A stretch of DNA of 64,000 nucleotides from a virus. The DNA lies in IMG/VR virus record IMGVR_UViG_3300043424_000354, positions 32,001-96,000 of that record, one strand, 5' to 3'. This document shows, piece by piece, positions 3,006 through 59,478 of the stretch. Below the pieces are notes generated by a model. The model was not told the DNA's origin, made no database searches, and worked only from the letters and a program-made list of their open reading frames with translations. Both the position numbers and the translations under genes were made by a program. Each line of letters begins with the position of its first letter. The stretch's first letter is position 1.

Positions 3006-3006
3006 A

Positions 3007-3464: not shown

Positions 3465-3473
3465 TGCGCTACC

Positions 3474-3725: not shown

Positions 3726-3742
3726 TATCTATCTCCAAATGC

Positions 3743-3764
3743 GGGAGGGGAAGAATCCCCTCCC
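3743..3764. other. GC-rich stem-loop after fibre gene
   Basis: GGGAGGGGA-AGAA-TCCCCTCCC perfect 9-bp stem; only a weak U-tract, so a terminator or an mRNA-stability hairpin. Confidence 0.6.
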
Positions 3765-3773
3765 TATTATATA

Positions 3774-5474: not shown

Positions 5475-5501
5475 TCCGTTTTCCTTTGGTTATAGTTTGT
5501 T

Positions 5502-6079: not shown

Positions 6080-6106
6080 GAGAAACCCTTATAAATTATT
6101 CTACAC

Positions 6107-6114
6107 TATTTATA
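6107..6114 (-). promoter_or_regulatory. T4-type late promoter TATAAATA
   Basis: Exact motif upstream of the gene starting at 6079; a one-mismatch TATAAATT on the + strand at 6090-6097 faces the GT operon. Confidence 0.75.
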
Positions 6115-6128
6115 AAATTGAGAGTTGT

Positions 6129-12076: not shown

Positions 12077-12109
12077 TCAAATCTCCAAAAAATACATTAA
12101 TTAATATTA

Positions 12110-12138
12110 TGTATACTACTTTTGCAATAGAAAGTCAA
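12110..12138 (-). promoter_or_regulatory. Sigma70-type promoter TTGACT-N17-TATACA
   Basis: -35 at 12133-12138, 17-nt spacer, -10 at 12110-12115; same pattern as the other phage promoters in this window. Confidence 0.6.
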
Positions 12139-12143
12139 GGGTT

Positions 12144-13727
12144 TTATGCAGTGCGAACCCAAAGTTTTACGGTTGACACTGTCTCTTTAGTTTCAATTAC
12201 TGTTGCGCCTGAATATGTTCCGGAATAAGTTCCCGAGTAGTTGCCTACGTAGTTACCGGAGTAGTTTCTGGAACCTGCGAAGTAACCAGTATAAAATCCT
12301 GTAAAGAATCCTTGGTAATTTCCAGTATATGTTGCAGTTCCAACATAATTTCCGGTAAAGTTATTTGCATATGTTCCGGAATAAGTTCCCGCATAGTTGG
12401 CGGCATAGTTTCTAGAACCAGAGAAGTATCCAGTATATGTTCCTGAATATGTTCCTGCATAGTTAGCAGCATAGTTTCTAGATCCAGCAAAGTATCCAGT
12501 AAAATTACCCAGATAGGTTCCGCTGAACGTACCCGAGAAATAACTTATATAATTTCCCGCAAAAGCAGTACCAGCATAACCACCATAGAAAACAGAATAA
12601 TACCCAACATACCCAGTTGCATATCCTGCGCCAATGTAGTTACCGCTGAAATTGCTAGAATAAGTTCCTGCATAGTTACCAGCATAGTTCCTAGAACCTG
12701 CGTAATACCCTACGTAGTTGCCAGAGAAATTGCCAGCATAGTTGCCTGCGTAATTTCTAGAACCCGCGTATGATCCAGTATAATTTCCTGTGAAATTGCC
12801 TGTATACGTTCCTGAATAGTTTGCCGGACCTACATAACCGCCACTGAAGTTGTTGGCATAATTACCAGAATATGCGCCAGCATAATTACCAGAGTAATTT
12901 CTAGAACCAGCATAGGTTCCTGCGTAGTTACCTGCGTAGTTACCTGCGTAGTTTTGCGGAGTTACTTGTTCACGAGTATCTGCAAACTCATCACCCATTT
13001 GCACCCAAGTGCCGCCAGATGGAGCAGTGGATTGAATCTTATATGTCCCAACGCCGCTATCGATAATTCTATTGCGGAAGTTTGGTAGCATCTGAAGAAT
13101 CTCAGAAGATGACATTTCTTTGACATCTTTCGTATTGATCAGTTTCAGTGGTTTTAGATTGGCATCCGAAAGAGAAGTAGCAGCAGTTTTCTGCCAAAGA
13201 TATGTTGTGGTATTCCCACCATTAGCAACATCGGTTAGCGTGTAACGAGCAACCCACGTCCCGCCTGACGGAGCAGAACCTTGTAGGCGATATTGACCCG
13301 CAGTATACGAAGTCTCCGAAACCATCGCATTAATTGCATAGTCCAGAATTTCGGTATCGATTTGACCATCAGTCATTTCGCGGATACCCGAATCATATTT
13401 CAGCGGACGATTTGTAATACTTTCTGATGCTGCAGCAGAGACCTGCTTTGCGTAGTATGTAACTGTGTCTAATGCACCAGTAGCAGGGTGAGTGCCTGTT
13501 GCTTCTTGGCGATCAGTGTCAGCAAAAGTTCCGATTGCAGTTCCTGCGCCACTATTGTTTGTGGTGATATTTAGTTCGCCAGTGCCAGTACCGTCGGAGT
13601 TAGCACCGAAAGAAACTGTCAATGTTTGGGCGATGTAGTTCTTGACTTCATCAGTAGTCATCTCCTGCAAACCTTGCCAGTTTGCAGAAGAAACAGGTGT
13701 TGCCGAGGATTTGTTTCTCAATACCAT
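12144..13727 (-). CDS. Gly/Tyr-rich repeat virion protein, paralog B
   Basis: About 255-aa N-terminal domain shared with 13731..15722, then a long [YF]-x-G-[NT] tract and C-terminal TVSTVKLWVRTA. Confidence 0.8.
   Translation of the reverse strand: MVLRNKSSATPVSSANWQGLQEMTTDEVKNYIAQTLTVSFGANSDGTGTGELNITTNNSGAGTAIGTFADTDRQEATGTHPATGALDTVTYYAKQVSAAASESITNRPLKYDSGIREMTDGQIDTEILDYAINAMVSETSYTAGQYRLQGSAPSGGTWVARYTLTDVANGGNTTTYLWQKTAATSLSDANLKPLKLINTKDVKEMSSSEILQMLPNFRNRIIDSGVGTYKIQSTAPSGGTWVQMGDEFADTREQVTPQNYAGNYAGNYAGTYAGSRNYSGNYAGAYSGNYANNFSGGYVGPANYSGTYTGNFTGNYTGSYAGSRNYAGNYAGNFSGNYVGYYAGSRNYAGNYAGTYSSNFSGNYIGAGYATGYVGYYSVFYGGYAGTAFAGNYISYFSGTFSGTYLGNFTGYFAGSRNYAANYAGTYSGTYTGYFSGSRNYAANYAGTYSGTYANNFTGNYVGTATYTGNYQGFFTGFYTGYFAGSRNYSGNYVGNYSGTYSGTYSGATVIETKETVSTVKLWVRTA
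12920..12953. repeat. 12-bp coding tandem repeat (CTGCGTAGTTAC, about 3 copies; encodes YAGN)
   Basis: ctgcgtagttac-ctgcgtagttac-ctgcgtagtt seen directly. Confidence 0.8.
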
Positions 13728-13730
13728 AGT

Positions 13731-15722
13731 TTACGCAGTTCTAATCCACAACTTAATTGTTGAAACTGTATCTTTAGTCGCTTGAATCGTCGCACCACTA
13801 TAATTACCAGTAAAGGTATTTATATACGAACCAGAATAGTTTCCGGTGTAAGTTCCGCCGCCTGCATAGTTACCACTGAAGTTGCCCGTGTAATTTGATG
13901 TTGTAGAGAAGGTTCCTTGATAGTTGCCAGAGTAGTTTGCTGGTCCTGTGAAGTACCCCGTATAGAAACCTCCTGGTCCAGAGAAATATCCAGTGTATGG
14001 AGTTGGAGGAACAAATCCGTTATAGTTTCCAGTGTATGATGTACCGTATGCTGGACCTTGGAACGAAACTGTTCCGGAATAATTACCAGCAAAGTTACTT
14101 ACGTATGTTCCGTTATATGTTCTTGAACCTGAATAATATGCTATACCAGTATATCCTGGACCTGTGCCAGCATAGTTGCCAGAATAGGTTCTGGATCCCG
14201 AGTAGGTTGCTGGTCCTACATAATTGCCAGTAAAAGTGCCTCCTGGCGAAGAGAAGGTGTTGGTATAAAATACAGGCAAGTATCCTATACCTGGAATAAA
14301 CTGCGTTTCCTGATATGAACCAGAATATGCTGGACCAGGACCAGTAAAGAATCCAGGACTATAGTAAACTGTCTGCAAACCACTATATGGATCAGGTATC
14401 TGATTTGAGAAATAATCAGTGTAATAATTAGTCCCCGAGTAATACCCTGTATAATAATCTGCCATAAAGGCACCAGTATATCCTGGTCCAGGAGCACCAC
14501 TATAATTACCTGTATATGTGGCAGTTCCTGCGTAACTACCAGCATAGTTTCTCGAACCAGAGTAATATGCTACACCAGAATATGTTGCTCCTGTTCCGGC
14601 ATAATTACCAGCATAGTTTCTTGAACCAGAGTAGTAAGATGCGTAATTACCAGTATATGATGGACCTGGACCACTAAAGAACGGCGAATAGAATGGGGAT
14701 CCAGTATAAGTGCCGGAATAACTGATCAGTGGACCTAGTGGTGCAGTATATGTTGTTCCAGTATAACTTACTGCATTAGTAAAGGTGTTTGAATACCCAG
14801 CAGTTCCAGCATAATTACCAGAAAAGTTACCTGTGTAATTTGAGGTTGTTGAAAAAGTGTTTGAATATGTTCCGCTGTAATTTACTACGCCACCATAGTT
14901 GCCGCTGTAGTTACCAGTGAAATTTCCGCTGTAGTTACCAGCATAATTCTGCGGAGAAACTTGCTCGCGAGTATCGGAAAACTCATTGCCCATCTGAACC
15001 CAAGTTCCACCAGAAGGTGCTGATGATTGTAATTTATAGGTTCCGATTCCGGTATCGATAATTCTATTACGGAAGTTCGGTAGCAGTTGTTCGATTTCAG
15101 ATTCTGTCATCTGCTTGCAGTTGCTGCCGTTGTAACTGCGCAACGGAGTATAATCTGAATTTGGAGAAGATGATGCTACTGTTTTTTGCCAGAGATATGT
15201 AACAGTGTTTCCGCCTTGCGCAGTATCTGTTAGCGTATATCTGGAAACCCAAGTTCCACCCGACGGAGCAGATGCCTGTAGTTTATATTGTCCAGCAGTA
15301 TAACTAGATTCGGCGACCATCGCCTCAATGCAGAGATCCAGCACGCCATCAATATCACCATCACTCATCTCTTCAAGATGAGAATCCCATGCGAGTGGTC
15401 TGTTGGTGATGCTTTCTGATGCCGCAGCAGTTACCTGCTTTGCGTAGTACGTGGTAGTTGTAGTATTTCCAGTCGCGGGATGCGTGCCAATCGATTCAGT
15501 TCTATTGGTATCAACAAAAGATCCGATTGAAGTCCCAGAACCCGAATTGTCTGTTGTGATGTTTATTTCAGCAGTACCTGTACCGTCAGTTACTGCTGCG
15601 AATTTTTCAGTGATAACATTGGCAATATAATTTTTTACCTCTGAATCGGTCATAGTCTGCAAACCGCTGATGTTTGCAGAAGTGATTGGGGACCCTGATG
15701 CTTTGACCTTTAGAGGATTCAT
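13731..15722 (-). CDS. Gly/Tyr-rich repeat virion protein, paralog A
   Basis: Same N-terminal domain (GTHPATG, YYAKQV, SAPSGGTWV twice), longer repeat tract, C-terminal TVSTIKLWIRTA. Confidence 0.8.
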   Translation of the reverse strand: MNPLKVKASGSPITSANISGLQTMTDSEVKNYIANVITEKFAAVTDGTGTAEINITTDNSGSGTSIGSFVDTNRTESIGTHPATGNTTTTTYYAKQVTAAASESITNRPLAWDSHLEEMSDGDIDGVLDLCIEAMVAESSYTAGQYKLQASAPSGGTWVSRYTLTDTAQGGNTVTYLWQKTVASSSPNSDYTPLRSYNGSNCKQMTESEIEQLLPNFRNRIIDTGIGTYKLQSSAPSGGTWVQMGNEFSDTREQVSPQNYAGNYSGNFTGNYSGNYGGVVNYSGTYSNTFSTTSNYTGNFSGNYAGTAGYSNTFTNAVSYTGTTYTAPLGPLISYSGTYTGSPFYSPFFSGPGPSYTGNYASYYSGSRNYAGNYAGTGATYSGVAYYSGSRNYAGSYAGTATYTGNYSGAPGPGYTGAFMADYYTGYYSGTNYYTDYFSNQIPDPYSGLQTVYYSPGFFTGPGPAYSGSYQETQFIPGIGYLPVFYTNTFSSPGGTFTGNYVGPATYSGSRTYSGNYAGTGPGYTGIAYYSGSRTYNGTYVSNFAGNYSGTVSFQGPAYGTSYTGNYNGFVPPTPYTGYFSGPGGFYTGYFTGPANYSGNYQGTFSTTSNYTGNFSGNYAGGGTYTGNYSGSYINTFTGNYSGATIQATKDTVSTIKLWIRTA

Positions 15723-45041: not shown

Positions 45042-45199
45042 CTTATTTCCTAAAGGTTGTTAAACTTGAGAGGGTATTTACCAGTGACTCCCCACACTGG
45101 GTCGTAAACGACAAAATCCCCCGATGCTTTGCTGTCACCAGATCGGCACCGAGGGATTCATATAATTATTTATTGATTTGAAACCCTATGTTAACTCGT

Positions 45200-45565
45200 T
45201 CCACCGCTGTAATAGAACGGATGGTAGTTTTTTCTGTTTCGAGGAAAAACTACCAAAACCCAAGGAGATCACGCTGCTAGGCGCATCTCAAAGGCAACAT
45301 TATCGTTTGCTGCATTTACGTTTTGCGGGCACTTTACCCAAGCAATCAGTCTACTCTCGCCTTCAACTCGCAGTCGAATCCTAAGTACGCCCCCATCATA
45401 GATACTGCCCGTTACTGACGCATCACGCAATCTCGTCTTGGGTTTTTATTTCGCTACGCTGGAAGATACCCTATCTCCCTTGTGCCACTTGACAGTATCT
45501 ATGGTGGAGGCGAGGGGAGTTGCACCCCTGTCCTACGAAGCATTCAGTTTGTATCAACAACTGAT
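45200..45565 (-). ncRNA. ssrA: Circularly permuted (two-piece) tmRNA
   Basis: Acceptor piece ends ...AGGGGTGCAACTCCCCTCGCCTCCACCA (CCA end at 45502) and precedes the coding piece starting GGGGGCG at 45394; G3:U70 pair; tag frame 45313-45269 reads (A)ANDNVAFEMRLAA-stop; outer ends approximate. Confidence 0.92.
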
Positions 45566-45569
45566 AATC

Positions 45570-45600
45570 TATTTATACTATACTGATCTTTAAAAGTCAA
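45570..45600 (-). promoter_or_regulatory. Overlapping sigma70 and late promoter for the tmRNA
   Basis: TTGACT (45595-45600), 17-nt spacer, TATAAA that extends to an exact TATAAATA (45570-45577). Confidence 0.8.
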
Positions 45601-48227: not shown

Positions 48228-49661
48228 TTAAAAGACCTTCACATTATACATGCCTTGAAACATCTTAGCGTCTTTCTCGTCATTAACCATCGGAAATCCT
48301 TTAATGTTCAGACTAGTATTGAGTAGCATCGGACAACCCGACCACAGATACCATTCGTTCAAGAGATTCCAAAGATCAGGATGCTGTTCTTTTGTTACAG
48401 TCTGGACGCGAGAAGTCCCGTCTGCATGAACAATAGCAGGAAACTGATCAGGATATTTACATCTTGAAGTATATTGCATATACGGGGATGATTCAACTGG
48501 CATGTCAAAATATTCGCTTGCATGCTCTGCCATGATGACAGGCGCGAATGGTCTAAATTTTTGCCTTCGTTTGATTGCATTTACTCTATCCTTAATATCA
48601 GATCTTGTGGGATCTGCGAGCAAACTCCGATTACCCAACGCTCTGGGACCAAACTCCGCAGGTCCATTAGCAACACCAACTATACCTGATTTTCGCAGTT
48701 CTGTCAATAGATTTCCAATAGGATATGGTCCAGGAATATTTTCGCCGAGATATGGACCCTTCCAGTTTAGTTTCCTGCGATTATTAGCAGCGATTGCACC
48801 AAGACTGCTTCCTGCGTCTCCTGGGTTTGGCATAATCCACAAATTTGGGAAGTATTCTATGGCAATAGAATTTGCGCTGCAGTTTAATGCACATCCACCC
48901 ATGATAACAAGGTTGCGCTGTTTCCAGTTTGTCAGGTTGCCTGTTCTTACAATCAAATCTCTGAAGAGAACTTCGTAAACCCACTGCGCAGATGCAGCAA
49001 TATCATAATGATCTTGCTCAGTATTAAGTTCTGGTTTCCACCACTGACAACCGCGATGTAGATTTTCTTCATTGTAAAGATTCAATAATTCAAGACCGTA
49101 TTTGTTTTTACCGTATGCCGCCATACCCATGAGGATATATTCGTCCTCGTTCGGTTTTAACCCAACACGCTGTGTCATTGCTGAATAAAAAAGACCGATG
49201 GACTTGGGATATTCCATCGACCAAACCTTCTTCATCTTCTCACCAGATGCATTCCATATAGTGGCAGTATCAAACTCACCAATCGCATCGATTACTAACA
49301 CAGCAGCATCATCGAACGGTGAAGTATAGAATCCTGCCGCAGCGTGAGATTCATGGTGATATGCAAACTCTACGGGGATACCTTCCAGACCGAAGTGCTT
49401 CAGATACTGGCGAACGCTGAAACGAACTAGACCTTGACCTGCTAGAAATCTGCGCATTCCTCGAAGTTTAGGTTTCTCATACCAGTGTATTACTTCTGGT
49501 TTACCAAACTCTAATGCTGCGTTGATCAGGTCAGCATTTAGATGCTTGTCGTTTTTGATTCCGCTGTAACGCTCTGCATGAGAGGCGAATAAAATTTCGT
49601 CACCCTCCACTACGGTAAGAGCAGCATCATGCGCTGCGGCAGAGATTCCCCATTCAATCAC
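48228..49661 (-). CDS. Carbamoyltransferase (NodU/CmcH family)
   Basis: GISAAAHDAA, HHESHAA, VIDAIGE, LMGMAAYG, GGCALN, PGDAG, EFGPRALGNRSLLADP, FRPFAP, LLNTSLN. Confidence 0.95.
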   Translation of the reverse strand: MIEWGISAAAHDAALTVVEGDEILFASHAERYSGIKNDKHLNADLINAALEFGKPEVIHWYEKPKLRGMRRFLAGQGLVRFSVRQYLKHFGLEGIPVEFAYHHESHAAAGFYTSPFDDAAVLVIDAIGEFDTATIWNASGEKMKKVWSMEYPKSIGLFYSAMTQRVGLKPNEDEYILMGMAAYGKNKYGLELLNLYNEENLHRGCQWWKPELNTEQDHYDIAASAQWVYEVLFRDLIVRTGNLTNWKQRNLVIMGGCALNCSANSIAIEYFPNLWIMPNPGDAGSSLGAIAANNRRKLNWKGPYLGENIPGPYPIGNLLTELRKSGIVGVANGPAEFGPRALGNRSLLADPTRSDIKDRVNAIKRRQKFRPFAPVIMAEHASEYFDMPVESSPYMQYTSRCKYPDQFPAIVHADGTSRVQTVTKEQHPDLWNLLNEWYLWSGCPMLLNTSLNIKGFPMVNDEKDAKMFQGMYNVKVF

Positions 49662-50986
49662 TTATATAACCATTCAAGTTCTGGAAAGGTTTTCATGAAA
49701 TCTGTATTTCGAACATTATCAAGTTTGGAATATTCTTCCATATGTTTTAAGTAATCTTCGCCGTCATAATCAAAGAAATCCATGTCTTTTTGATCAATTT
49801 TTCGCATTTCTTTGATTTTTTCTATTGAATTAATAATACTTTGTTTTTTATATGGATTAGAAGCATTCGGTATGACAGTATCCAAATACCATGTTTCAAA
49901 CTCCTCTAACGACCGAATAACATATTCCCAGTGTTGCTGTGGAATATTCATTACATTCAAATGCTTTGGTGTTCGTATTAGATTGGTAAACAAGAAATAT
50001 TCAAAGGTTGGATGATATTTGTTACTTTCCTGATATATACCTATAGAAAGAAATTCTTGAACCATTTCCTTTAATCTGTGCATATTTAAGGCACTCAATA
50101 CAGGTGCAATACACAATTTATGCGTAGGATTATGTTCAGTGTTTATTTCCTCGAAGCAATCATGAATTTTTTTGAGATTCTGTGAAACACTATCCCATTT
50201 TGCGGGCCACCGTATATAATTAAATCTATCCCCGACTTCATCGATACTCGCCATTATTAACACTGATTTAAACTGTTTCCAGTACTCTAGAACATCTTTA
50301 TCCTTATTCTTCAGCGTGCTACAATTTGTAGAATATACAAGATCAATTTCTTTTGCTCGATCTGCCTCTATAAGTTTATCAAGAGTATACCAGTGATATT
50401 TTGACAACATCGGTTCGCCTCCAGCAAAATAAATGTTATCAACGCTGTCCAAATTATCATCAATTAATTGATATGCTATCGTATCGTCAGTTGGTTCGAT
50501 AAATTTCGGAGAAGTTGGAGGTATATTTAATTTTTGCATGAGATCATACCAACTAGAACTCAACGCATGACCGCAAGTAATGCATGCTTGGTTACAATGA
50601 TTGGAGAATCTAAAATCAATATACTTCAATTTGTTCGTAGTCATTGATCCATCTTCAAGTAACTGACTCATGTAATAATCATAATTTGATTCGTATTGGG
50701 TGTTGCGCCACTTTCTTGAACTGGTATCGGAAAACTTTTCAGTGTCATAACAGAAAGAACATATTGGATTCTTTTCACCTGCTATCATTCTACGTCGAAA
50801 TTCTTTATACTCTTCGCCATTCCAAATTTCTTCCCACGAAGAAACCATGTTTATATTTCCAAGTGGCGGTTTTGTCATGTCCCCCACGCAACAAGGCATA
50901 ACATTTCCGTTAGGTGCCACGTATGTATGGAGCAATCCCAACATACAAAAAGAAGGATTTTCTTTGAGATTATAATCTTTAGTCAT
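49658..50986 (-). CDS. Radical SAM protein with N-terminal twitch/SPASM-like Cys domain (rSAM6)
   Basis: CNQACITC, FAGGEP, N-terminal FC..PCC..CSFC. Confidence 0.92.
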   Translation of the reverse strand: MTKDYNLKENPSFCMLGLLHTYVAPNGNVMPCCVGDMTKPPLGNINMVSSWEEIWNGEEYKEFRRRMIAGEKNPICSFCYDTEKFSDTSSRKWRNTQYESNYDYYMSQLLEDGSMTTNKLKYIDFRFSNHCNQACITCGHALSSSWYDLMQKLNIPPTSPKFIEPTDDTIAYQLIDDNLDSVDNIYFAGGEPMLSKYHWYTLDKLIEADRAKEIDLVYSTNCSTLKNKDKDVLEYWKQFKSVLIMASIDEVGDRFNYIRWPAKWDSVSQNLKKIHDCFEEINTEHNPTHKLCIAPVLSALNMHRLKEMVQEFLSIGIYQESNKYHPTFEYFLFTNLIRTPKHLNVMNIPQQHWEYVIRSLEEFETWYLDTVIPNASNPYKKQSIINSIEKIKEMRKIDQKDMDFFDYDGEDYLKHMEEYSKLDNVRNTDFMKTFPELEWLYK

Positions 50987-51083
50987 AGATAAATGGATCC
51001 AATTTTTTCAATTTCTCTAATCTCTTCTTTAATTTTCTTTTGCGAATTAATGCACGAAATAATTCTACTATCTTGTTAACCAT
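50979..51083 (-). CDS. Small basic peptide (34 aa) ending DPFIYD, not in ORF track
   Basis: MVNKIVELFRALIRKRKLKKRLEKLKKLDPFIYD; GGGAG Shine-Dalgarno; overlaps both neighbours. Confidence 0.75.
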   Translation of the reverse strand: MVNKIVELFRALIRKRKLKKRLEKLKKLDPFIYD

Positions 51084-51879
51084 CTATAACTCCCGTCGTG
51101 ATTAATTCATCAAACATATGATTGGCGAATTTCTTGTGAACATCGACAACTGGATGCCCCCATCCATGCGTATATTTCTCTATCTCCTCCACGACCACGA
51201 AATTAGAAAGAGAAACTTCCGGAGACAACAAATTATCAAACTTTACATTGTCCAACCAAGGTAATTTACTTTTATACCCGCTCAATACTAATCGAATTGA
51301 TTGTAACGATTGAACTGTCATGACAATTTTCAACCTATTACCCAAAGATTTTGACAGGTAGTCTAGATATTTTGCATGCTTGATGTATTCCCACATCAAA
51401 TTACAATCTGTTGCCCACGTGTCTAGTAATGCATCGTTCAACTTGGCACTGTGCGTCCATCGAGAATCTCCCACGAATTTGGTAATCATTATTCCGGAAT
51501 CGGAAACCCAAGAAAATCTTACTGGACAAGTTAAACCAACAAAAATAAGATCAGTTTCTACGATTTCATTGGAAACAATATCGCGTTCAATGTTGTAGAT
51601 AAACTCGTTTATACTAGTTCCCATTTTAGCGCGATTTGAACACGAGACCCCCAACCGCTCTGCGATATAATTAGGCCAAGCAAGTTGTGATGACAATAAT
51701 GTGCAACGAATTCGCGTTTCCTCATTCCCATAAACACCCTCGACGCAATGTATACCATGCTTGCGTTTGTAAGCATCAATTTCTTCATGCGGTTTGTTCA
51801 AGATAATAGCATCTGCCAGTTCTTGCCCAGCAGTGTAACTGCAACCATATGCAACTACTCTATTAATATTGAGTGCCAT
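51076..51879 (-). CDS. SGNH/GDSL-hydrolase-like protein
   Basis: AYGCSYTAG (block I), AWP, NRAKMGTS, C-terminal GHP...H. Confidence 0.7.
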   Translation of the reverse strand: MALNINRVVAYGCSYTAGQELADAIILNKPHEEIDAYKRKHGIHCVEGVYGNEETRIRCTLLSSQLAWPNYIAERLGVSCSNRAKMGTSINEFIYNIERDIVSNEIVETDLIFVGLTCPVRFSWVSDSGIMITKFVGDSRWTHSAKLNDALLDTWATDCNLMWEYIKHAKYLDYLSKSLGNRLKIVMTVQSLQSIRLVLSGYKSKLPWLDNVKFDNLLSPEVSLSNFVVVEEIEKYTHGWGHPVVDVHKKFANHMFDELITTGVIDG

Positions 51880-53009
51880 TCTGGAAAACTTTCGTTAAAA
51901 TGGTTGTTTCTATACTTATCATGCGAAGAAGTTACTCGCAGAAATTGATTAAATTCTTCTGAATCGGATATATTACTTCCTAACATATTAGTTATAACAT
52001 CAAGTTTATCCGAGTATGCAAGCAGACGATCGCGTACGAGTTCTTTTTTATTTTCTGGTATGTTAGTTATACTGAGATGCGTAGGAGTAAATAACATATT
52101 GTAGTATATACCAATATGCGGAAAATTTTCTCGCATAAATTGATCAAAATTAACTGTATCCCAAATATTATATAGACTTACGGTATAGCAAAAATCAACT
52201 GTTATATTATTGTTTTCCTGCATAAGATCTGAATACTTACGAATAACATCCAGTACAGTATCCCATTTTGCTGGATATCTCATATATTCGAATGCAGAAG
52301 CAATACCATCAATGGAAAGAGAAATATTCACTTTCTTAAATTGTTTTAGTATTGTTATTTGATCATCAGACGGATATATTGTTGAGTTGGTGTTAAAATG
52401 GAGTTCTTGCGTCTGCGCATTACCCTCGTTTACGGATTTGCCGAGTATTTCCCACGATCGTTTAATTAATAGAGGTTCTCCACCGTAAAAGTCTATGGTG
52501 CTCGCCTTAGGTATCCAATCAACAAGAGTATTCCACACATTAGTGTTGCTGTCATCATATATGTGCTGTATCTTTTTATATCTACTAAGAAAATCAGTTT
52601 TATTTTGCCAAGAAGCATTAATATCAAACCATTCGTTTACCCAAGAACTGCTGCTATCTGGATTACAAGTTCTACAACGCAAGTTACATGCATTGCCAAG
52701 TTTTAAATCCAATAATTGCGGAGTTTCCGCTGCCAACAGATCTCTATTATTTTCTCTCTGTCGTTTGCTTTCTCTACCATTTCTTTCTTCAATCCAGCAT
52801 ATATCACAAGTTGGATTTTCAATTCCTGCTTCTAAATCCCATAGAAGTTTCTTTCTAGAATCAGATTGCCAAATATCTTGTAAAGAATCTTTACTTAGAT
52901 TGTATTCCTCGCCTGCTTTATCGGCAAATGGTTTTGCTAAGCAACATGGTCTTACTCTACCGACAGTATCGATTTCTATACCACATAATGCCTGCAAACA
53001 GGTTTTCAT
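51855..53009 (-). CDS. Radical SAM protein with twitch-like domain (rSAM5)
   Basis: CNLRCRTC, FYGGEP, RPCC, CDICW, SIDG..FEYMRYP. Confidence 0.92.
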   Translation of the reverse strand: MKTCLQALCGIEIDTVGRVRPCCLAKPFADKAGEEYNLSKDSLQDIWQSDSRKKLLWDLEAGIENPTCDICWIEERNGRESKRQRENNRDLLAAETPQLLDLKLGNACNLRCRTCNPDSSSSWVNEWFDINASWQNKTDFLSRYKKIQHIYDDSNTNVWNTLVDWIPKASTIDFYGGEPLLIKRSWEILGKSVNEGNAQTQELHFNTNSTIYPSDDQITILKQFKKVNISLSIDGIASAFEYMRYPAKWDTVLDVIRKYSDLMQENNNITVDFCYTVSLYNIWDTVNFDQFMRENFPHIGIYYNMLFTPTHLSITNIPENKKELVRDRLLAYSDKLDVITNMLGSNISDSEEFNQFLRVTSSHDKYRNNHFNESFPEWHSILIE

Positions 53010-54208
53010 AATTGTTCGGCCCAAGGATGCGTCTCAAAAAGATTTTGTCCGCGAATACCGTCCAAAAGTTTCTGTTTTTCCACAAACTTTTTCTGCAACA
53101 CACTGTTAGTCAAATTAGATGTATTACTTTCAAGGTAATTGATTGTGTTTCTAATTTCATGACGATTGATTGTAATTTTTTCTTTAATGTTTTTTAGTTC
53201 TTGTAGATAGGAATAATAATAGGACTCCGGCATTACATCTGCTTGTAAGAAATCCGGACGGTTAACAGGAATAACACCCATAGAAAGACCAAGTTCTTCG
53301 CACCACAAGAATAAATCACGAAGCGAGTTATTAGACAAAGTGAGATTTTGCAAAGTCGGCGTCACACCGCATTCAATATTTTTGAATTCGGAAATTTCCG
53401 ACATCAGCAATTTCATATTTCCTTCGATGGTTGTCCATTTAGCAGGATTGCGGATATACTCATATTGTTTACCCATTCCGTCGATACTCACGTTCAACTG
53501 AACAAACTTAAACTTCTTCCACATATCAATGAATTTCTTACCCAAGAAAATACCATTTGTATTGTATACGAGTTTAATTTTTGAAGAACTACCCGTCTCA
53601 ATCAAGTAAGTCAGAAGTTCTTCATGCGCATCAATAATAAGAGGTTCCCCTCCGATCATATAGATTTCCTGCAGAGTATCTAGATGTGGAGTAACAACAT
53701 CACGCATATTGACGTTATCAACCCACTCAGAGGAATCATATCCCATCTCATAATATTCTCTAGACTCAGCATGAGTTTGAACTTCCTTGCCAATCAGAGA
53801 ACTACTAAACGGTGCGCACATTCTGCACCTGAGATTGCATTTTTTACCCAGATCAAATTCTATTCTGAAAATTCCCAGTGGTTGCTCATCTTTTATTTGC
53901 TCGTAGATATCTGAATATCTCTGATTAATTGACTGACGAAAACTCTGCATACCAGAATCTTCCATCTTCCAGCAGCGTCCACACAAAGGATGCCTTTTTC
54001 CTTCTAACATATATTCGCGCAATTCTTTGTGCGTGTGTGTATTCAGAAATCTGTCGACAGAATAATCTTCAAGTTGATTTATATTTGCCTTAACACCCTT
54101 CTCGCTTTCGATCTCAGCATAGATTGCATTACAGCAAGGTCGCAATCCTCCATTAGATCCGATACTCAACAACATCCAAGGATAGGCGCATACTGTGTTA
54201 TTTTCCAT
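53006..54208 (-). CDS. Radical SAM protein with twitch-like domain (rSAM4)
   Basis: CNLRCRMC, IGGEP, CAYPW..RPCC..CGRCW. Confidence 0.92.
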   Translation of the reverse strand: MENNTVCAYPWMLLSIGSNGGLRPCCNAIYAEIESEKGVKANINQLEDYSVDRFLNTHTHKELREYMLEGKRHPLCGRCWKMEDSGMQSFRQSINQRYSDIYEQIKDEQPLGIFRIEFDLGKKCNLRCRMCAPFSSSLIGKEVQTHAESREYYEMGYDSSEWVDNVNMRDVVTPHLDTLQEIYMIGGEPLIIDAHEELLTYLIETGSSSKIKLVYNTNGIFLGKKFIDMWKKFKFVQLNVSIDGMGKQYEYIRNPAKWTTIEGNMKLLMSEISEFKNIECGVTPTLQNLTLSNNSLRDLFLWCEELGLSMGVIPVNRPDFLQADVMPESYYYSYLQELKNIKEKITINRHEIRNTINYLESNTSNLTNSVLQKKFVEKQKLLDGIRGQNLFETHPWAEQL

Positions 54209-55478
54209 CGGATTGTTCTCGTTCTTTTTGTTTGATTATCCCACGACTTGTTGTTCCTAGTTCGCCCTGATCCAGATTGTTATATTCTTCACCACAACAA
54301 GCACTGCACTGATAACTTCTCATTTCATGTTCGCGGTTAAAACTCAACGGAAGATACCGTTGATACAAAGGCGAAGCAATGATTTCTTCGATTGAATTTT
54401 TATGAAGAGAAATAGATTCCATACCACCATTCAAATCGATCATTCTTACCGATGAATCGTTTGTATTCCAAGTATCTGAATTTGATCTCCACTGTTCCCC
54501 GCCAAGGAAACAGCACGGATACACATTACCTGCACCATCGACAAAGATTTCATTCAAATTTTGATACTTGGATTTTCTTGCTCTACAAACAATCCCTAAT
54601 GAGTTATGTTTGATTGAAGTATATTCCTTGCTCTCTGGATCGAAAACGTATATTTCCTTTTTAGATTTTGGATCCGGTGATAGTCTGTTAAACTCATCAT
54701 TTGTAATATACTGCGGAATTAATCCCTTTGCTGCACGTTTGAACTCTACCGAGTTTTCATTTTGATAGATAGGATTAGTTGGTTGCTGCAGAGTATGGGT
54801 GTGCTGATCATTATCATAAACATCGAAGTATCCCATACCGTCTTTGTATGAATGCCACCTTGTTGTCTTCTTGATATTAAAGAATGTAAATCCCAATTCC
54901 TCTGCAATCTTTCTTGCTTCTTCTACCTGATGTTCATTGTGCTTGAATACAATATAATCCCATCGCGCCTTACCGCCAGCAGAGGTAAATGCTTTCATGT
55001 TTTCGTAAATCTTATCGAAATTAGTATTTCTTCTATAGAGATGGTTTGTATCCCACAATCCGTCTACTGAAAAGATGACATAATCCTGTCGTGTTCCATC
55101 CGGACCGCCATTCATAACGGTTGCCAATTCTTCCCACCAAGACTTAGATCTGGCGCTCCCATTAGTATGAATAACCAACCCAACGCGATCATTACACGAT
55201 CTAATATATTTGTAAATTTCTAACGTGTCTTTTGCAGCGACTGGATCGCCGTAGTTACCGCATGCATAAATTCTTCGCATTTGCGAAAGGAATTCCGGAG
55301 AGAACCAAGTTTTGAACTGTTCTAGAGTGATTTCCGTCATTGGTAAAATAGGATTCAGCATATTTCCGTGACTTATATAACGCGGACACATTGGGCATGC
55401 AGCATTACATCTAGTCGTCAGTTCTAAATGCATACCAGTAAGTTCGCGATGAGATGCGTATAACGGTTCAACCATCAT
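54198..55478 (-). CDS. Radical SAM protein with C-terminal SPASM/twitch domain (rSAM3)
   Basis: CNAACPMC, CGNYGDP, FSVDG, FKHNEHQ, C-terminal VYPCC..CSACC. Confidence 0.92.
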   Translation of the reverse strand: MMVEPLYASHRELTGMHLELTTRCNAACPMCPRYISHGNMLNPILPMTEITLEQFKTWFSPEFLSQMRRIYACGNYGDPVAAKDTLEIYKYIRSCNDRVGLVIHTNGSARSKSWWEELATVMNGGPDGTRQDYVIFSVDGLWDTNHLYRRNTNFDKIYENMKAFTSAGGKARWDYIVFKHNEHQVEEARKIAEELGFTFFNIKKTTRWHSYKDGMGYFDVYDNDQHTHTLQQPTNPIYQNENSVEFKRAAKGLIPQYITNDEFNRLSPDPKSKKEIYVFDPESKEYTSIKHNSLGIVCRARKSKYQNLNEIFVDGAGNVYPCCFLGGEQWRSNSDTWNTNDSSVRMIDLNGGMESISLHKNSIEEIIASPLYQRYLPLSFNREHEMRSYQCSACCGEEYNNLDQGELGTTSRGIIKQKEREQSDGK

Positions 55479-56877
55479 TTAATTCCTTGCACATGTAATA
55501 AAAATTCTCGTATGCTGGGAACAATTCCAACAGACCAAGACCAACAGTTCTCTTATCGTATTCAGTAAAGAATTTATAAAAATCCTTTCTACCGTTTTCA
55601 ATCAATTTTTCATCAATGCGAGGACCGCCTTGGTAAAAGTAATTCCGAACACGCTTCATCTTTTCGAACTCTTGTTCCTGAAATCCATGCACTAATCCTG
55701 GTGCAGAGATATTATCCTGAATGAACAGAAGATCCGAATCAATATACTTTCCGAACTCTTCCTTTGGTAGAAGATTGATCATCCAGTGAGGAGGTTCTTT
55801 CAGATATGGAGTGTCAAACATAATACGATTTTCATAAGGGTTGACATTCCACTTCTTACGAAGTTCTAGAATCTTTTCTAAGAATGGGCGGAAAGAAGCA
55901 ACACACAGAATATTATAAGTGCACATAATACTAATTGAAACATTAGGAACAGTTTCTAGAAATGTTTCAACATTCTTCAACCAAAGATCCTGATTCAATC
56001 CTCGACGCATATACTCTGCTTGCGGACCCCACGCTTCAAGAGAAGTATAGAGTTTAAAGTCCTTGATCTTTTTCTTTTCTAAAAGATTTTTGGCAGAATC
56101 CGATAGACGTTGAACTCGATTATTACTAACACCAAGATTACTGTTGATATTCAATTCTAAATGTTTCGTATCATCACCTTCTTCCAACATCTTCATGAGT
56201 TTCATGGTGTTGGGATTGATCATCGCTTCACCACCCGTAAGACGAAGAACGCGAAGATCTTTCTTTAGATCAGGCCACCACTTCCAGAATGCATCGACGT
56301 ATGGATTTTCTTCGTCGTCGCGGTAAACCTTTGTATTCTTCAGGTAATCAATTCCGTATTGATTGTAACTGATGTCATAGTTACCATGTTCGCGAATTTC
56401 CTGTTCCCATAGAGATGATGCTTGCGGGCAACAATAACCGCATTTGAAGTTGCAACCATTACCGAAACTTACTTCTAAGAAATATGGATTATAATCCTGA
56501 TCCCAAGGAAGGTTTTTTACCCTTTCGGTTTCTTCCTTTGCATCAATCCAAGTACTCGCATTATGAAACATTCTATCGCTGAAGTGTTCTCCGGGAAGAT
56601 TTTCCACGTTCCAGCAGTAATAACATTCTTCTGGTCGACCGCCCTCGAGCATGATCTTGCGTTGCTGCTTTTTCCACTTTGTATTGTGAAGAGCAGAAGG
56701 GTTCTCTGCAATTTCTTCAAGAGGAATGCGTTGTGGTCGAGGGTGGTAACAACTATGATTGTCACCCATATGCAAATATAGAGTTTCGTGCCTCCATTTC
56801 TGCAGACAGAAACCGTTTCCGACTGTATTAAGAGTATCGCGTACTTCGCGAACTCTGTCTAGATAACTATTGCTCAT
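55468..56877 (-). CDS. Radical SAM protein (rSAM2)
   Basis: FCLQKW, HSCYHP, ECYYCW, CNFKCGYC, TGGEA. Confidence 0.92.
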   Translation of the reverse strand: MSNSYLDRVREVRDTLNTVGNGFCLQKWRHETLYLHMGDNHSCYHPRPQRIPLEEIAENPSALHNTKWKKQQRKIMLEGGRPEECYYCWNVENLPGEHFSDRMFHNASTWIDAKEETERVKNLPWDQDYNPYFLEVSFGNGCNFKCGYCCPQASSLWEQEIREHGNYDISYNQYGIDYLKNTKVYRDDEENPYVDAFWKWWPDLKKDLRVLRLTGGEAMINPNTMKLMKMLEEGDDTKHLELNINSNLGVSNNRVQRLSDSAKNLLEKKKIKDFKLYTSLEAWGPQAEYMRRGLNQDLWLKNVETFLETVPNVSISIMCTYNILCVASFRPFLEKILELRKKWNVNPYENRIMFDTPYLKEPPHWMINLLPKEEFGKYIDSDLLFIQDNISAPGLVHGFQEQEFEKMKRVRNYFYQGGPRIDEKLIENGRKDFYKFFTEYDKRTVGLGLLELFPAYENFYYMCKELNDG

Positions 56878-58390
56878 TTTTGCATCTCTCATAAAAATTA
56901 ATTAATTCAGGAAACGTTTGTTTAAAATTCGTGTCTCTGCGTCTATCTAACTCGTCAACGTATTGAGAAAAGCGAATCATATCCACATACAATTCTTCTG
57001 GTTTTTGCCCTGCTCGCATTATATCTAGGTCGCGCTGAACCTTGTCAATTTCATACTGCCTGAAACCAGTAAAGCACAGAGCAGCAGGATAAACATTGTC
57101 AGAGGTATCGAGATTATCTCTCATAAACTGCAGGCAATCCTCCATAACATCAATCATCTCAGTTCCAGCAAGCATCTTGATATTCAACCATGTTGGTGTG
57201 TGTAAAATGGGAATATCAAACCAAATTCGTTGACGCTTCTTACGAACTATAGAGGGATGCCCTTCTATCCCCATCATCTTTTCTGGTTGCGCGTCAGAAC
57301 CGAACTCTTGGCGCAATTTTAAAATCCACTGTAAAAATTGTTTTAGGTTCGGGACGCTCAAGATATTAAAGGTGTTAATAAATGTAACATTGGTACCGTC
57401 GGTGGATCTCAAGAATTCTCTGACATTTGCATCCAAACGTTGAAAATTCATACCTGTTCGAATGTATTCTGCTTGTTCTCCATAAGAATCGCAAGATACG
57501 AACAATGAGAAATGTTTGATCGCGGGAGCAACATACGAATGATTGCCGCTGTCGTAGTTGAATTTGTCAGGATCTTCCCAGATTCTAACCTGTTCTAATT
57601 TCTGAACTGAAGAAACAAACTTGTCAAACAATTCTTGCTTTGGTGGGCACAGATTACTAGTAATACTCAACTCAAGATCAGCATTGGGATGCTTGTCTAC
57701 ATAATCAAGAACCTTGAACGTGTTATTATCCATTAAAGGTTCTCCGCCAGTCATGCGGAAAATTTTAAGGTTCTTATAGAGTTCGGGCCACCATTTCCAG
57801 AATGCTTCGACGTAGGGATTTTCTTTTTGAGAAACTTTCTTTGGCATCAATCCATATGAAGTCAATGCACCAAGATCATTGTGCGCTGCTTGCTTTAAAA
57901 TATATGGACCAAACTTCTCTGCTTCTTCGTGCCAAGCAGTACTAAGATGAGGACTGCAGTAGATGCATTTAAAGTTACACGCCTGATTGAAGTTTACTTC
58001 CACGTATGCGGGAGTAATTTGATCATCGATGTCTTTGTTAAATGCAATCTTCTCAAAATCAATAGAGTTCCACCATTCGCTGCTGCGATAGTGTCGATCA
58101 CTAGTATGCCCTGCGTCCTCGATACGCCAACAATACGAACATCCCTTTGGTCGTTCGCCCCTGCGCATCATAGCACGTTCTTCGATTTTTTGTGGAGTGT
58201 TGTGAAGTAATCCAGGATTTTCTGCTAACCCATCAACAGGAATGTCATGCGCGGGCGGGTGATAGCAACTATGCGTCTTACCATTAGTAAGGTGCATACT
58301 TACCATATTCCATTTTGCTAGGCAGAAAGTTGGACTTATGTCATCAAGTTTTCTTTTTGTCTCTTGCGCAGAATCACTATAATCCGTCAT
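56867..58390 (-). CDS. Radical SAM protein (rSAM1), paralog of rSAM2
   Basis: FCLAKW, HSCYHP, GCSYCW, CNFKCIYC, TGGEP, NPYVEAFWKWWP. Confidence 0.92.
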   Translation of the reverse strand: MTDYSDSAQETKRKLDDISPTFCLAKWNMVSMHLTNGKTHSCYHPPAHDIPVDGLAENPGLLHNTPQKIEERAMMRRGERPKGCSYCWRIEDAGHTSDRHYRSSEWWNSIDFEKIAFNKDIDDQITPAYVEVNFNQACNFKCIYCSPHLSTAWHEEAEKFGPYILKQAAHNDLGALTSYGLMPKKVSQKENPYVEAFWKWWPELYKNLKIFRMTGGEPLMDNNTFKVLDYVDKHPNADLELSITSNLCPPKQELFDKFVSSVQKLEQVRIWEDPDKFNYDSGNHSYVAPAIKHFSLFVSCDSYGEQAEYIRTGMNFQRLDANVREFLRSTDGTNVTFINTFNILSVPNLKQFLQWILKLRQEFGSDAQPEKMMGIEGHPSIVRKKRQRIWFDIPILHTPTWLNIKMLAGTEMIDVMEDCLQFMRDNLDTSDNVYPAALCFTGFRQYEIDKVQRDLDIMRAGQKPEELYVDMIRFSQYVDELDRRRDTNFKQTFPELINFYERCKNEQ

Positions 58391-58971
58391 TTATATCCGA
58401 CTGCCATATATCTATAGAAATGCCCGCACTTCAACATACCTGCATACTGCGGTTCTTTAATATTGTTGATTTCTAAGAATTGCTCCAGATTATCGGCAAG
58501 ACGAACATGCTCAGGATTTTCTAGATTATTTCCTTGGACGATATATTTAGTTCCTGTTGGAATAGAGTTCCACCAAGCATCATAAACTTCTTGGGTCACA
58601 TGCTCGCTGCTGGTGTTGATCACCAAATCGGGATATGAATAATTGAGTGGCATACCATTTTTCATGTCGTGCTGACGAAATGTGATTTCATGATAGCACT
58701 CATCGATAGCAGCAAATACCTTTTTACATTCGGGGTCTAAGTCGGTGGTCAGAATTCTAGCATCGGGGAACTTATGCGCAATAAACTGCGCAAGAACTCC
58801 ATACCATCCACCGAAAATTATGATAGATCTATCCATGTGAGTTACATGTTCGAGTAACCACTTCTTGCTCTCGATCTGACTCGGCCAAAAGTTCTCCGAG
58901 AATCGATATGCATTCTCTGGATTATTACGGATATATTGCATCCAAAGCATTACTACATCAAAATTAACCAC
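58387..58971 (-). CDS. Class I SAM-dependent methyltransferase
   Basis: SQIESKKWL, IIFGGWYG (motif I), TDLDP, VINTSSEH, RYMAVG. Confidence 0.78.
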   Translation of the reverse strand: MVNFDVVMLWMQYIRNNPENAYRFSENFWPSQIESKKWLLEHVTHMDRSIIIFGGWYGVLAQFIAHKFPDARILTTDLDPECKKVFAAIDECYHEITFRQHDMKNGMPLNYSYPDLVINTSSEHVTQEVYDAWWNSIPTGTKYIVQGNNLENPEHVRLADNLEQFLEINNIKEPQYAGMLKCGHFYRYMAVGYK

Positions 58972-59374
58972 GGCGCATCCTCGCTACTTCATGTGCTTGT
59001 TCTTCGTTGATAATAGGAACAGCATTCGACTTGTGCATCGTTGCGATACCTTTGATCAGAGTTCCCGTATATACGTTTTCCTTACGACCAACCATAACAC
59101 CAATGCCGACTCCACCCTCATACTTAGGTGTTTCGCGGCGATAGGTCGTAGCATCCATTGGACCTTTGACTCCACCTTTTAGTTTAGTGTTAGATTTACC
59201 TTGACGATACGCGACATACTCGTCGAACGTCTTAGTTTTAGCACCAAGACGCTTCATCTGCTTGTTGTAATCGACCCAATCCTGAGCATACCTGGAGGTC
59301 ACACCCTTGTTCGCAGTCTTGCGCTTCCTGGTGTTCGTGGTGGTATACGCATGGGACATAAGATGCATAGTCAT
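58964..59374 (-). CDS. Conserved T4-like phage hypothetical protein
   Basis: VYTGTLIKGIATMHKSNAVP...VARMRRG; AAAGGA Shine-Dalgarno before ATG 59374. Confidence 0.8.
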   Translation of the reverse strand: MTMHLMSHAYTTTNTRKRKTANKGVTSRYAQDWVDYNKQMKRLGAKTKTFDEYVAYRQGKSNTKLKGGVKGPMDATTYRRETPKYEGGVGIGVMVGRKENVYTGTLIKGIATMHKSNAVPIINEEQAHEVARMRRG

Positions 59375-59404
59375 AACACAATTTCCTTTCAAATCCAACA
59401 TACT

Positions 59405-59478
59405 CTTATACCCTACTGGAGTAAAAATGTCAAGCCATAATTTAGCGGCTTGACAATTTGATTAAAATGGAGTAGAAT
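59405..59478. promoter_or_regulatory. Divergent sigma70-type promoters
   Basis: Minus: TTGACA (59428-33)-N17-TATAAG (59405-10). Plus: TTGACA (59450-55)-N17-TAGAAT (59473-78). Confidence 0.85.

Follow-up and report, generated by a model that had tools for sequence, protein, structure and literature searches.

A stretch of DNA of 64,000 nucleotides from an uncultured marine T4-like phage (IMG/VR record IMGVR_UViG_3300043424_000354, positions 32,001 to 96,000; hereafter the window) contains an operon that is a real radical-SAM (S-adenosylmethionine) tailoring cluster, so far uncharacterised. The operon comprises 11 minus-strand genes (48228-59401), each overlapping or abutting its neighbour, and is a composite of two modules that are both also found apart: a module of twitch-type radical SAM (rSAM) enzymes, a methyltransferase (MT), and an SGNH-like protein, and a module of an O-carbamoyltransferase (CT) and a 34-residue peptide. 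Its composite nature follows from the patterns in which the modules co-occur and from gene content that differs at the same site in close relatives. Particular to this operon are the lack of a glycosyltransferase, the presence of a classical rSAM/SPASM enzyme together with a small MT, the setting among replication genes with an early-type promoter in front, and the twitch gene that lies between the peptide and the CT. A sugar-bearing substrate is favoured, by analogy, by the genomic context and by the relatives that the CT, the SGNH fold, and the twitch domain have among sugar-acting enzymes. The reading that we prefer, at a probability of about 45%, is that a host glycan precursor undergoes serial radical editing and is also methylated, (de)acylated, and O-carbamoylated.

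From the promoter, the genes run in the order orf145, MT, rSAM1, rSAM2, rSAM3, rSAM4, rSAM5, SGNH-like protein, 34-residue peptide, rSAM6, and CT. A first-pass annotation of the window had described an operon of overlapping or coupled minus-strand genes behind a sigma70-type promoter, and the open reading frames (ORFs) are indeed found where it placed them. The ten genes that it recognised (48228-58971) are all present; an eleventh, orf145 (58964-59401, minus strand), also belongs to the operon, since it overlaps the start of the MT gene by 8 nt and thus carries the unit beyond the end first assigned. The product of orf145 matches phrog_27048 (E 9e-20) from residue 11 on, its true start is likely the ATG at 59374, behind AAGGA, and the gene is kept at 62-70% identity in L007 and L008 (loci used for comparison are designated by L numbers). 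The promoter, TTGACA-N17-TATAAG, was read from the sequence on the minus strand (-35 at 59433-59428, -10 at 59410-59405) and is placed upstream of orf145, inside a palindrome with a 10-bp stem (59428-59455, TGTCAAGCC...GGCTTGACA). This palindrome gives a TTGACA box to both of two divergent promoter-like sites, the plus-strand site being TTGACA-N17-TAGAAT; it also scores as a terminator-like hairpin. Ten T4-type late boxes (TATAAATA) occur in the window, and the window scan found none of them near the operon. With a sigma70-like promoter and no late box nearby, the operon is probably expressed early or in the middle of infection from a host-type promoter, as judged from consensus matches. All genes with an estimable synonymous rate (dS) have dN/dS values of 0.03-0.26 relative to the syntenic locus L008, which are rough values, dS being saturated, and the operon genes are under purifying selection. 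A megablast search of the operon against 50,697 phage records gave no match.

All six radical SAM enzymes, encoded on the minus strand, retain one CxxxCxxC motif and one GGE/GDP motif each, as well as the extra cysteine clusters noted at first pass: four N-terminal cysteines in rSAM1, rSAM2, rSAM4, rSAM5, and rSAM6 and about six C-terminal cysteines in rSAM3. Pfam Radical_SAM or SPASM matches were obtained for six of six; PF04055 matches every one of them, five above its cut-off and rSAM1 below it (23.9 bits versus 29.5). End-to-end matches at 283-331 bits place rSAM1, rSAM2, rSAM4, rSAM5, and rSAM6 in NF033640 (NCBIfam N_Twi_rSAM; full-length hidden Markov model, curated cut-off of 170 bits), a family that has been catalogued only and in which a Cys-rich auxiliary domain is N-terminal to the CxxxCxxC core. 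Membership of these five was confirmed on the genome too; rSAM3 is no member. The earlier division of the six enzymes into three subtypes does not hold, and is replaced by NF033640, with two deep clades, plus one classical rSAM/SPASM enzyme. As rSAM1 and rSAM2 score 311 and 283 bits on NF033640, their HSCYHP signature marks a deep clade inside this family and no separate type.

Within the HSCYHP clade, rSAM1 (56867-58390; NF033640 310.8 bits) has the motif CNFKCIYC at residue 138 and cysteines at 23, 42, 84, and 87, and its clade in the family tree also holds members from L009, L088, L028, L041, L052, and L067. The second enzyme of this clade, rSAM2 (55468-56892; 282.8 bits), has CNFKCGYC at residue 147 and cysteines at 29, 48, 90, and 93; it is 92% identical to its L008 orthologue, with a dN/dS of 0.03. 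Among the other N-terminal-twitch enzymes, rSAM4 (53006-54208; 308.8 bits) has cysteines at 7, 25, 26, 76, and 79 and CNLRCRMC at residue 124, rSAM5 (51855-53024; 289.3 bits) falls into a clade with members from L009, L088, L041, L052, L067, and L020 (support 99), and rSAM6 (49658-50986; 331.1 bits), with an N-terminal domain that matches the BtrN twitch domain in the profile search (E 1.8e-10), is encoded between the 34-residue peptide and the CT. The classical enzyme, rSAM3 (54198-55478), has a C-terminal SPASM-like Cys cluster (Radical_SAM 33.6 bits, SPASM 25.9 bits), with CNAACPMC at residue 24 and cysteines at 298, 322, 323, 391, 394, and 395. It reaches only 45.9 bits on NF033640, had no match in a PDB sequence search, and has a homologue next to an MT-like gene in L011 and L129. 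By score, the enzymes also stand outside the housekeeping and antiviral families, and the clustering with housekeeping families that the first-pass annotation had named as refuting its reading is not seen: the best scores were 32 bits versus a cut-off of 284 for MoaA, 21 versus 131 for NrdG2, and 25 versus 349 for anSME, the best score on the viperin model was 28.5 bits (cut-off 180), and the NCBIfam scan gave no match of an operon rSAM to QueE-type models.

In an alignment of 57 NF033640 sequences, C14, C32/C33, C76, and C79 are nearly or fully invariant and the core motif is conserved. The family profile over the N-terminal 70-80 residues matches the twitch (auxiliary-cluster) domain of BtrN from butirosin biosynthesis (PDB 4m7t) with an E value of 1.8e-10, and the N-terminal Cys set is predicted to form an auxiliary [4Fe-4S] twitch domain. 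BtrN is an aminocyclitol dehydrogenase. The likeness between BtrN and the operon enzymes lies in this domain match and in a single auxiliary cluster, which in the operon enzymes is predicted; the twitch domain of BtrN is C-terminal, whereas that of the operon enzymes is N-terminal, and whole-model similarity to any solved rSAM enzyme is low (Foldseek template-modelling (TM) score 0.3-0.5, VIA Z at most 12.7). The model concerned, an AlphaFold (AF2) model of rSAM6 with a predicted local distance difference test (pLDDT) score of 91.4, resembles solved rSAM enzymes in the common core only, and its VIA Z values are effectively tied among CteB (12.7), BlsE (12.3), SkfB (12.1), DesII (11.2), and anSME (11.1).

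The remaining enzymes of the first module are the MT and the SGNH-like protein. The MT (58387-58971, minus strand; 194 residues, with an alternative start at residue 8) is a probable class I SAM-dependent methyltransferase, with a match to Methyltransf_25 (PF13649) of 19.4 bits against a cut-off of 27. In Atlas, its viral clusters include one named methyltransferase, and of the nearest cluster with a Pfam label 21% of members carry Methyltransf_31; no PDB sequence match was found. The sub-threshold match and the Atlas lead speak for the methyltransferase of the first-pass annotation, although the call is weak. The SGNH-fold protein (51076-51879, minus strand), esterase- or acyltransferase-like and related to DUF6071, which its relatives match, is SGNH by model, as annotated earlier, but has no Pfam or NCBIfam match itself. 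Its AF2 model, made with 15 homologues (pLDDT 92.3), gave 37 PDB matches at E<=1e-3 in Foldseek, the listed ones all being SGNH/GDSL proteins, and a Foldseek probability of 1.0 was obtained for the CE2 esterase 2w9x, TesA, ChoE, PatB, and Axe2. PatB is a peptidoglycan O-acetyltransferase, and CE2 and Axe2 are carbohydrate/acetylxylan esterases; that carbohydrate esterases and PatB are among the nearest folds supports a sugar context. Conserved residues include G12-C13-S14, N82, G87, and H242-P243. The block I Ser (S14) and the block V His (H242, followed by P243) do not vary, and neither a block III Asn nor a triad Asp is evident.

The CT (48228-49661, minus strand; 477 residues) is a short-type NodU/CmcH/TobZ O-carbamoyltransferase. 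The NodU/CmcH-type assignment made at first pass is borne out by both domains, a Kae1-like N domain and a YrdC-like C domain, each far above its Pfam cut-off: Carbam_trans_C (PF16861) at 172 bits versus 27 and Carbam_trans_N (PF02543) at 139 bits versus 24. The protein also matches phrog_1601 (E 9e-99), and its nearest PDB matches are 7xb6, NovN, GdmN, and TobZ. It is not NodU itself (141.9 bits on the NF041651 equivalog versus a cut-off of 1000), and it is 49-53% identical to CTs that adjoin twitch enzymes in the Ralstonia phage RsoM2USA and in L028, L041, and L075. NovN and TobZ carbamoylate sugar hydroxyls. Both Pfam domains are common to the operon CT and TobZ, NovN, GdmN, and NodU; compared with the long TobZ-type CTs, the operon enzyme is about 100 residues shorter and is accompanied by a conserved micro-protein that the long CTs lack. 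Several segments are missing from the short form, including a C-terminal strand and some 35-45 residues that the long CTs have next to residues 201-207. In the alignment of short-type CTs, HxxxH, D125, and D282 are invariant, and H102, H106, D125, and D282 are residues that we take, from TobZ, to be the metal site of the transferase domain. A scan with the short-CT alignment found this form in at least 574 IMG/VR viral stretches.

The micro-protein (50979-51083, minus strand) is a basic peptide of 34 residues that ends in DPFIYD, and its gene overlaps the stop of the SGNH-like gene and the start of rSAM6. Its association with the short CT was surveyed in 80 of the at least 574 viral loci, 71 of which had upstream DNA. 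The peptide is present in at least 61 of these 71 short-CT loci, within 3.5 kb upstream in 50 (directly adjacent in 34) and elsewhere, by a wider scan, in 11. No twitch enzyme occurs within 8 kb in 35 of the 71, and twitch genes are absent from 43 of the 80 viral CT loci. In four viral, T4-like loci (L140, L143, L150, and L165), the short CT and the peptide stand alone between DNA primase and a DnaB-like helicase. The peptide is also found in L007, L008, L028, L041, L067, L075, and the Ralstonia jumbo phage RsoM2USA, and where these loci have a short CT it is encoded 0-1 gene upstream of it; the L067 contig ends before any CT. In RsoM2USA (L090:13892, MG752970), it is an unannotated ORF that ends in DPFIYK and lies upstream of the CT (gene 199), in the interval from gene 201 to gene 200; the record labels every gene of the cluster hypothetical. 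Conversely, the peptide is missing where twitch arrays have no CT (L009, with about nine twitch genes, and L088, with eight) and from the surroundings of six long-type CTs, those of three bacterial loci and of phages HTVC008M, S-CAM3, and P-SSM2.

Altogether, 68 distinct homologues of the peptide were collected from 76 loci, with a mean net charge of +6.8. They are built from a hydrophobic, aromatic, amphipathic N terminus, a Lys/Arg-rich middle, and DPFIY followed by one variable residue; DPFIY was itself part of the search pattern for the 68 peptides, and looser patterns gave almost only DPFIY and rarely DPFLY or DPYIY. Pfam gave nothing credible for the peptide, and PriX, matched by two of seven members with a best E value of 0.012, was taken as chance.

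Models of the complex between the CT and the peptide gave interface (ipSAE) scores of 0.75, 0.73, and 0.75, compared with 0.00 for the best control, with 100% contact agreement between runs and a partner pLDDT of at least 78. Of 80 solved complexes, 58 attain the score mark used, as do 2 of 110 mismatched pairs, counts that are only a rough guide for the custom alignments used. As modelled, peptide residues 22, 25-27, and 29-34 contact CT residues 10-11, 39, 71-76, 126-127, 157-171, and 201-207. The contacts of residues 29-34 adjoin the invariant CT residues D125, H11, and H202, and many of the contacted CT residues are invariant among short CTs. The models support binding of the peptide to the CT as a predicted partner and do not tell a subunit from a substrate. 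A role as a CT subunit or tether is somewhat favoured over that of a substrate, because the peptide is tied to the shortened CT and its N-terminal half is free in the model. Replacement by the DPFIY tail of an internal D-Y-F-L-F-like strand of the long CTs was considered and rejected, as the motif is not conserved in NovN and GdmN.

The modular structure of the operon is apparent from the 80 viral CT loci. MT genes are present in 22 of the 37 CT loci with twitch genes versus 2 of the 43 without, and SGNH-like genes in 25 of the 37 versus 9 of the 43; these loci are related to one another, and Fisher p-values overstate their independence. Of the two outcomes that the first-pass annotation had set against each other, genes that travel together and genes that assort independently, each is seen in part: the twitch/MT/SGNH and CT/peptide groups cohere, but the two modules assort separately. 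At the same site, L008 has an identical layout, L007 combines three twitch genes with other genes, and L009 has an MT and about nine tandem twitch genes (1427-15652) and neither CT nor peptide. An extra gene of the Asp/Asn beta-hydroxylase-like type (PF05118) lies between the CT and orf94 in L008 (L008:12701-13261). In L009, GMP reductase/IMPDH-family and sulfotransferase-like genes lie ahead of the array, and an ATP-dependent DNA ligase gene comes after it.

Beyond this phage, an exhaustive profile search found 8,242 representatives of NF033640 (50% identity) at E<=1e-30, and 329 loci were confirmed in one-genome-per-species contigs. Many of these loci are in metagenome-assembled genomes (MAGs) of Bdellovibrionota, Bacteroidota, and Verrucomicrobiota, and some in isolates (Reichenbachiella, Paenibacillus); many "bacterial" loci are MAG contigs that are possibly phage DNA, examples being L011 and L052, which have a tail-fibre chaperone domain. 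Tandem copies, two to eight, occur in 37 of 77 bacterial or MAG loci. In a tree of 76 members, the arrays are made of distinct old subfamilies, with the same ones recurring across loci; the rSAM1 and rSAM5 clades, for instance, contain one member each from L028, L041, L052, L067, L088, or L009. Distinct recurring subfamilies imply that the copies are non-redundant, which is the pattern of a multi-step pathway. Very distant hosts, namely a Legionellales MAG, a Haliscomenobacter MAG, and the Ralstonia jumbo phage, have the same subfamily sets alongside genes for the CT, the peptide, and the SGNH-like protein. Such joint recurrence of twitch, CT, and SGNH-like genes in phages and bacteria far apart supports the first-pass interpretation. 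A literature search found no paper that tests any NF033640 member or treats N-terminal twitch enzymes, and none on phage radical SAM enzymes together with a carbamoyltransferase.

The neighbours of the family bear on its substrate. Among 150 immediate neighbours, family 2 glycosyltransferases (GT2) and other rSAM enzymes are the commonest (8 each), followed by ABC exporters (3) and B12-rSAM enzymes (3); carbamoyltransferases occur in six family loci, and L011 has a gene of the UDP-glucose dehydrogenase-like type next to its array. In a Paenibacillus sp. (L063:9959-17745), a twitch rSAM gene heads an operon with a short-chain dehydrogenase/reductase (SDR), two ketosynthase-like proteins, an acyl-AMP ligase, and a GT2, which looks like a glycolipid-type cluster from its gene content. 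Cultured marine T4-like phages also have CTs in operons with sugar-metabolism annotations: the CT of HTVC008M shares its operon with genes annotated as glycosyltransferase, methyltransferase, and UDP-glucose dehydrogenase, and the CTs of the cyanophages S-CAM3 and P-SSM2 are found among genes annotated as an ADP-heptose pathway, beside tail fibres. A search for longer, fused forms of the twitch enzymes returned only tandem rSAM fusions, the TPR and Sel1 fusions having come from the representative search. One 735-residue member (L011:6906-9113) has about 330 extra residues between its twitch domain (7-72) and its rSAM core (440-603).

The first-pass annotation had called the operon a set of tailoring enzymes with a product that cannot be named from the sequence, and this stands, with no scaffold-building enzyme in the operon. 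It had offered a glycan, a nucleotide, or the host surface as the substrate; the context favours one that bears sugar, by inference only. Because the operon has no scaffold-building enzyme, transporter, or signal peptide, the substrate would be a cytoplasmic molecule of the infected cell. The first module consists of the MT, five non-redundant twitch rSAM enzymes, the single rSAM/SPASM enzyme, and the SGNH-fold protein, an esterase or acyltransferase. In the mechanism that we propose, the radical enzymes would all act on one sugar-bearing host substrate in the cytoplasm, each taking hydrogen from its own position; a candidate is a nucleotide sugar or a lipid-linked glycan intermediate. Oxidation, epimerisation, dehydration, or C-C bond formation would follow. 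Methylation and (de)acylation would complete the edits of this module. In the second module, the shortened TobZ/NodU-type CT would work with the 34-residue micro-protein, the DPFIY tail of which would dock next to the predicted metal site, on the Kae1-like transferase domain; the basic amphipathic N-terminal half of the peptide would stay free, perhaps as a tether or a targeting helix. The net effect would be a host envelope glycan that is chemically rewritten during infection.

Several observations weigh against this proposal. The operon has no glycosyltransferase, nucleotide-sugar enzyme, flippase, or transporter, and the sole glycosyltransferase-like ORF in the 108-kb record is weak and about 37 kb away. 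Its neighbours are replication genes, not tail-fibre genes, and its promoter is a consensus match only. The modelled folds do not separate sugar-, nucleoside-, and peptide-acting enzymes. In the wider family, GT2 genes are modestly enriched (8 of 150), the contexts of most single-copy loci are unrelated, the ketosynthases, SDR, and acyl-AMP ligase of Paenibacillus point to a lipid-like context, and the TPR or Sel1 repeat fusions of some members hint at protein substrates. In addition, the two modules may have different substrates.

Four other explanations were weighed. An unlikely one is that there is no single pathway and that a hypervariable site has gathered independent morons, with unrelated substrates or redundant. 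The content between orf145/MT and CT-orf94-PhoH does vary among close relatives (L007 and L009, with L008 identical), the CT and peptide are autonomous elsewhere, and near-identical pelagimyophages differ by the gain of an rSAM cassette (PMC7029224). On the other hand, all genes of the operon overlap and appear translationally coupled, the same subfamily sets are found with CT, peptide, and SGNH-like genes in the Legionellales MAG, the Haliscomenobacter MAG, and the Ralstonia jumbo phage, and the co-occurrence of twitch genes with MT and SGNH-like genes is strong, albeit among related loci. Modification of proteins after translation, either virion or fibre proteins or those of the host, in place of free glycans is the least probable of the four. 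It would agree with the family fusions to TPR and Sel1 protein-interaction repeats, with the protein-modifying SPASM enzyme anSME among the fold matches, with arrays that adjoin tail-fibre-like genes bearing an intramolecular-chaperone domain in L052 and L011, and with the rSAM cassettes in the host-recognition cluster of pelagimyophages (PMC7029224). The operon itself lies about 15 kb from the large fibre-like genes and has an early-type, not a late, promoter, and the repeat fusions are few among the 150 best representatives.

The setting of the operon recommends a third explanation, hypermodification of phage DNA or of the nucleotide pool, for example of a hydroxymethyl-pyrimidine or deazapurine that is carbamoylated and radically edited. 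The operon is embedded among genes for a gp32-like single-stranded DNA-binding protein (SSB), a helicase loader, an exonuclease, PhoH, and a DNA-binding protein, the CT and peptide lie between primase and DnaB-like helicase in other phages, the promoter is of the early type, the nucleoside/nucleotide enzymes BlsE and viperin are among the fold matches, and so basic a peptide (mean +6.8) could bind nucleic acid. This explanation is nevertheless improbable, as bacterial relatives adjoin GT2, ABC exporter, and B12-rSAM genes and not DNA enzymes, QueE-type models are unmatched, and Pfam and NCBIfam detected no kinase, glycosylase, or transglycosylase of hypermodification clusters among ten operon proteins; the lack of a ThyA-like hydroxymethylase or ThyX in the 108-kb record is weak evidence, the record being about 66% complete. 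Comparably improbable is a role of the peptide as the precursor or scaffold of a RiPP-like (peptide synthesized ribosomally and modified after translation) product, in which the CT would carbamoylate Tyr33 or the C terminus and the rSAM enzymes, the MT, and the SGNH-like protein would tailor the DPFIY core. The invariant C-terminal DPFIY, with its Tyr, recalls the precursors of PQQ and mycofactocin, SPASM/twitch enzymes are often peptide maturases, and CteB and SkfB are among the top fold matches. Moreover, the complex model sets Tyr33 against CT residues 126-127, beside D125 of the predicted metal site, and the CT and peptide alone form a closed two-gene unit in many phages. The distribution of the peptide argues against this role: it tracks the CT and not the rSAM enzymes, being missing from the arrays of eight to nine enzymes without a CT (L009 and L088) and present in CT loci without an rSAM enzyme within 8 kb (35 of 71). 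No domain of the PqqD type, or RiPP recognition element (RRE), was found in the six rSAM enzymes by Pfam and NCBIfam scans, and the loss from peptide-bearing short CTs of some 35-45 residues beside the docking site fits a subunit.

Mycofactocin and PQQ systems share with the operon a small peptide with a conserved C-terminal Tyr motif among rSAM/SPASM-type enzymes; the operon peptide differs in that it co-varies with the CT and not with the rSAM enzymes, and no RRE domain, peptidase, or flavoenzyme partners were found. In saxitoxin clusters, the O-carbamoyltransferase gene sxtI is flanked by the short ORFs sxtJ and sxtK of unknown function (PMC2885083), a likeness to the CT and the 34-residue peptide that is one of arrangement only, short ORFs flanking a carbamoyltransferase. 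Variable rSAM cassettes have been noted in the host-recognition cluster of pelagimyophages, only in passing and without family, partners, or function (Zaragoza-Solas et al. 2020, PMC7029224). Similar to the present phage, pelagimyophages are T4-like, have curli-related genes and a nearby tmRNA, and vary in rSAM number between relatives. Their cassettes lie in the host-recognition cluster, whereas the present operon lies beside replication genes, and the G+C filter of that study was 30-35% (PMC7029224), compared with about 40% here.

A more specific form of the glycan proposal, which is doubtful as it stands, would see in marine and jumbo phages a two-part kit: a non-redundant twitch assembly line that makes several different radical edits to one glycan and a two-component CT with an obligatory DPFIY micro-protein at the acceptor site. 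If so, the assembly line might rewrite the host envelope early, for instance to exclude competing phages, and the micro-protein would be a membrane tether, by way of its aromatic, basic, amphipathic helix, or itself the carbamoyl acceptor. Hundreds of auxiliary genes annotated as "Nol-like carbamoyltransferase" would then have an overlooked partner. As a hypothesis, the CT-peptide pair is cheap to test, and it would change how a widespread phage auxiliary gene is annotated. Working out a single array would give access to a whole area of radical chemistry not yet explored, the twitch family having thousands of diverged members in phages and many bacterial phyla. Operons of this type are common among uncultured oceanic phages of the T4-like and jumbo kinds, for which the chemistry of the envelope determines which phage infects which host. 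Genetics is feasible in carriers that have been cultured: RsoM2USA of Ralstonia (genes 199-204) and, of Vibrio, the phages K566 and K567 (genes 0303-0306) and VS1.

The window is part of a viral record of 108,631 bp, estimated to be 66% complete and with a G+C content of about 40%. T4-like replication and nucleotide genes surround the operon (gp32-type SSB, helicase loader, exonuclease, PhoH, and DNA-binding protein), and the window also contains very large structural ORFs, with large fibre-like genes about 15 kb from the operon. A permuted tmRNA gene (45178-45594, minus strand) was located by ARAGORN, and the type of its tag peptide, AANDNVAFEMRLAA, suggests an alphaproteobacterial host. The glycosyltransferase-like ORF (10936-11631, minus strand; 231 residues) matches the profile of a GT-A-like neighbour family, c3, with an E value of 3e-7 and PF00535 at 16 bits, below the cut-off. 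Beside it, at 12144-15722 (minus strand), are genes for paralogous proteins of 527 and 663 residues that are 51% identical and probably fibre-related. Four tandem paralogues of about 230-280 residues at 6078-9040 (plus strand) have 24-38% mutual identity and no credible Pfam match, and a fifth gene after them (9003-9689) bears a weak likeness to the MT-like protein of L011.

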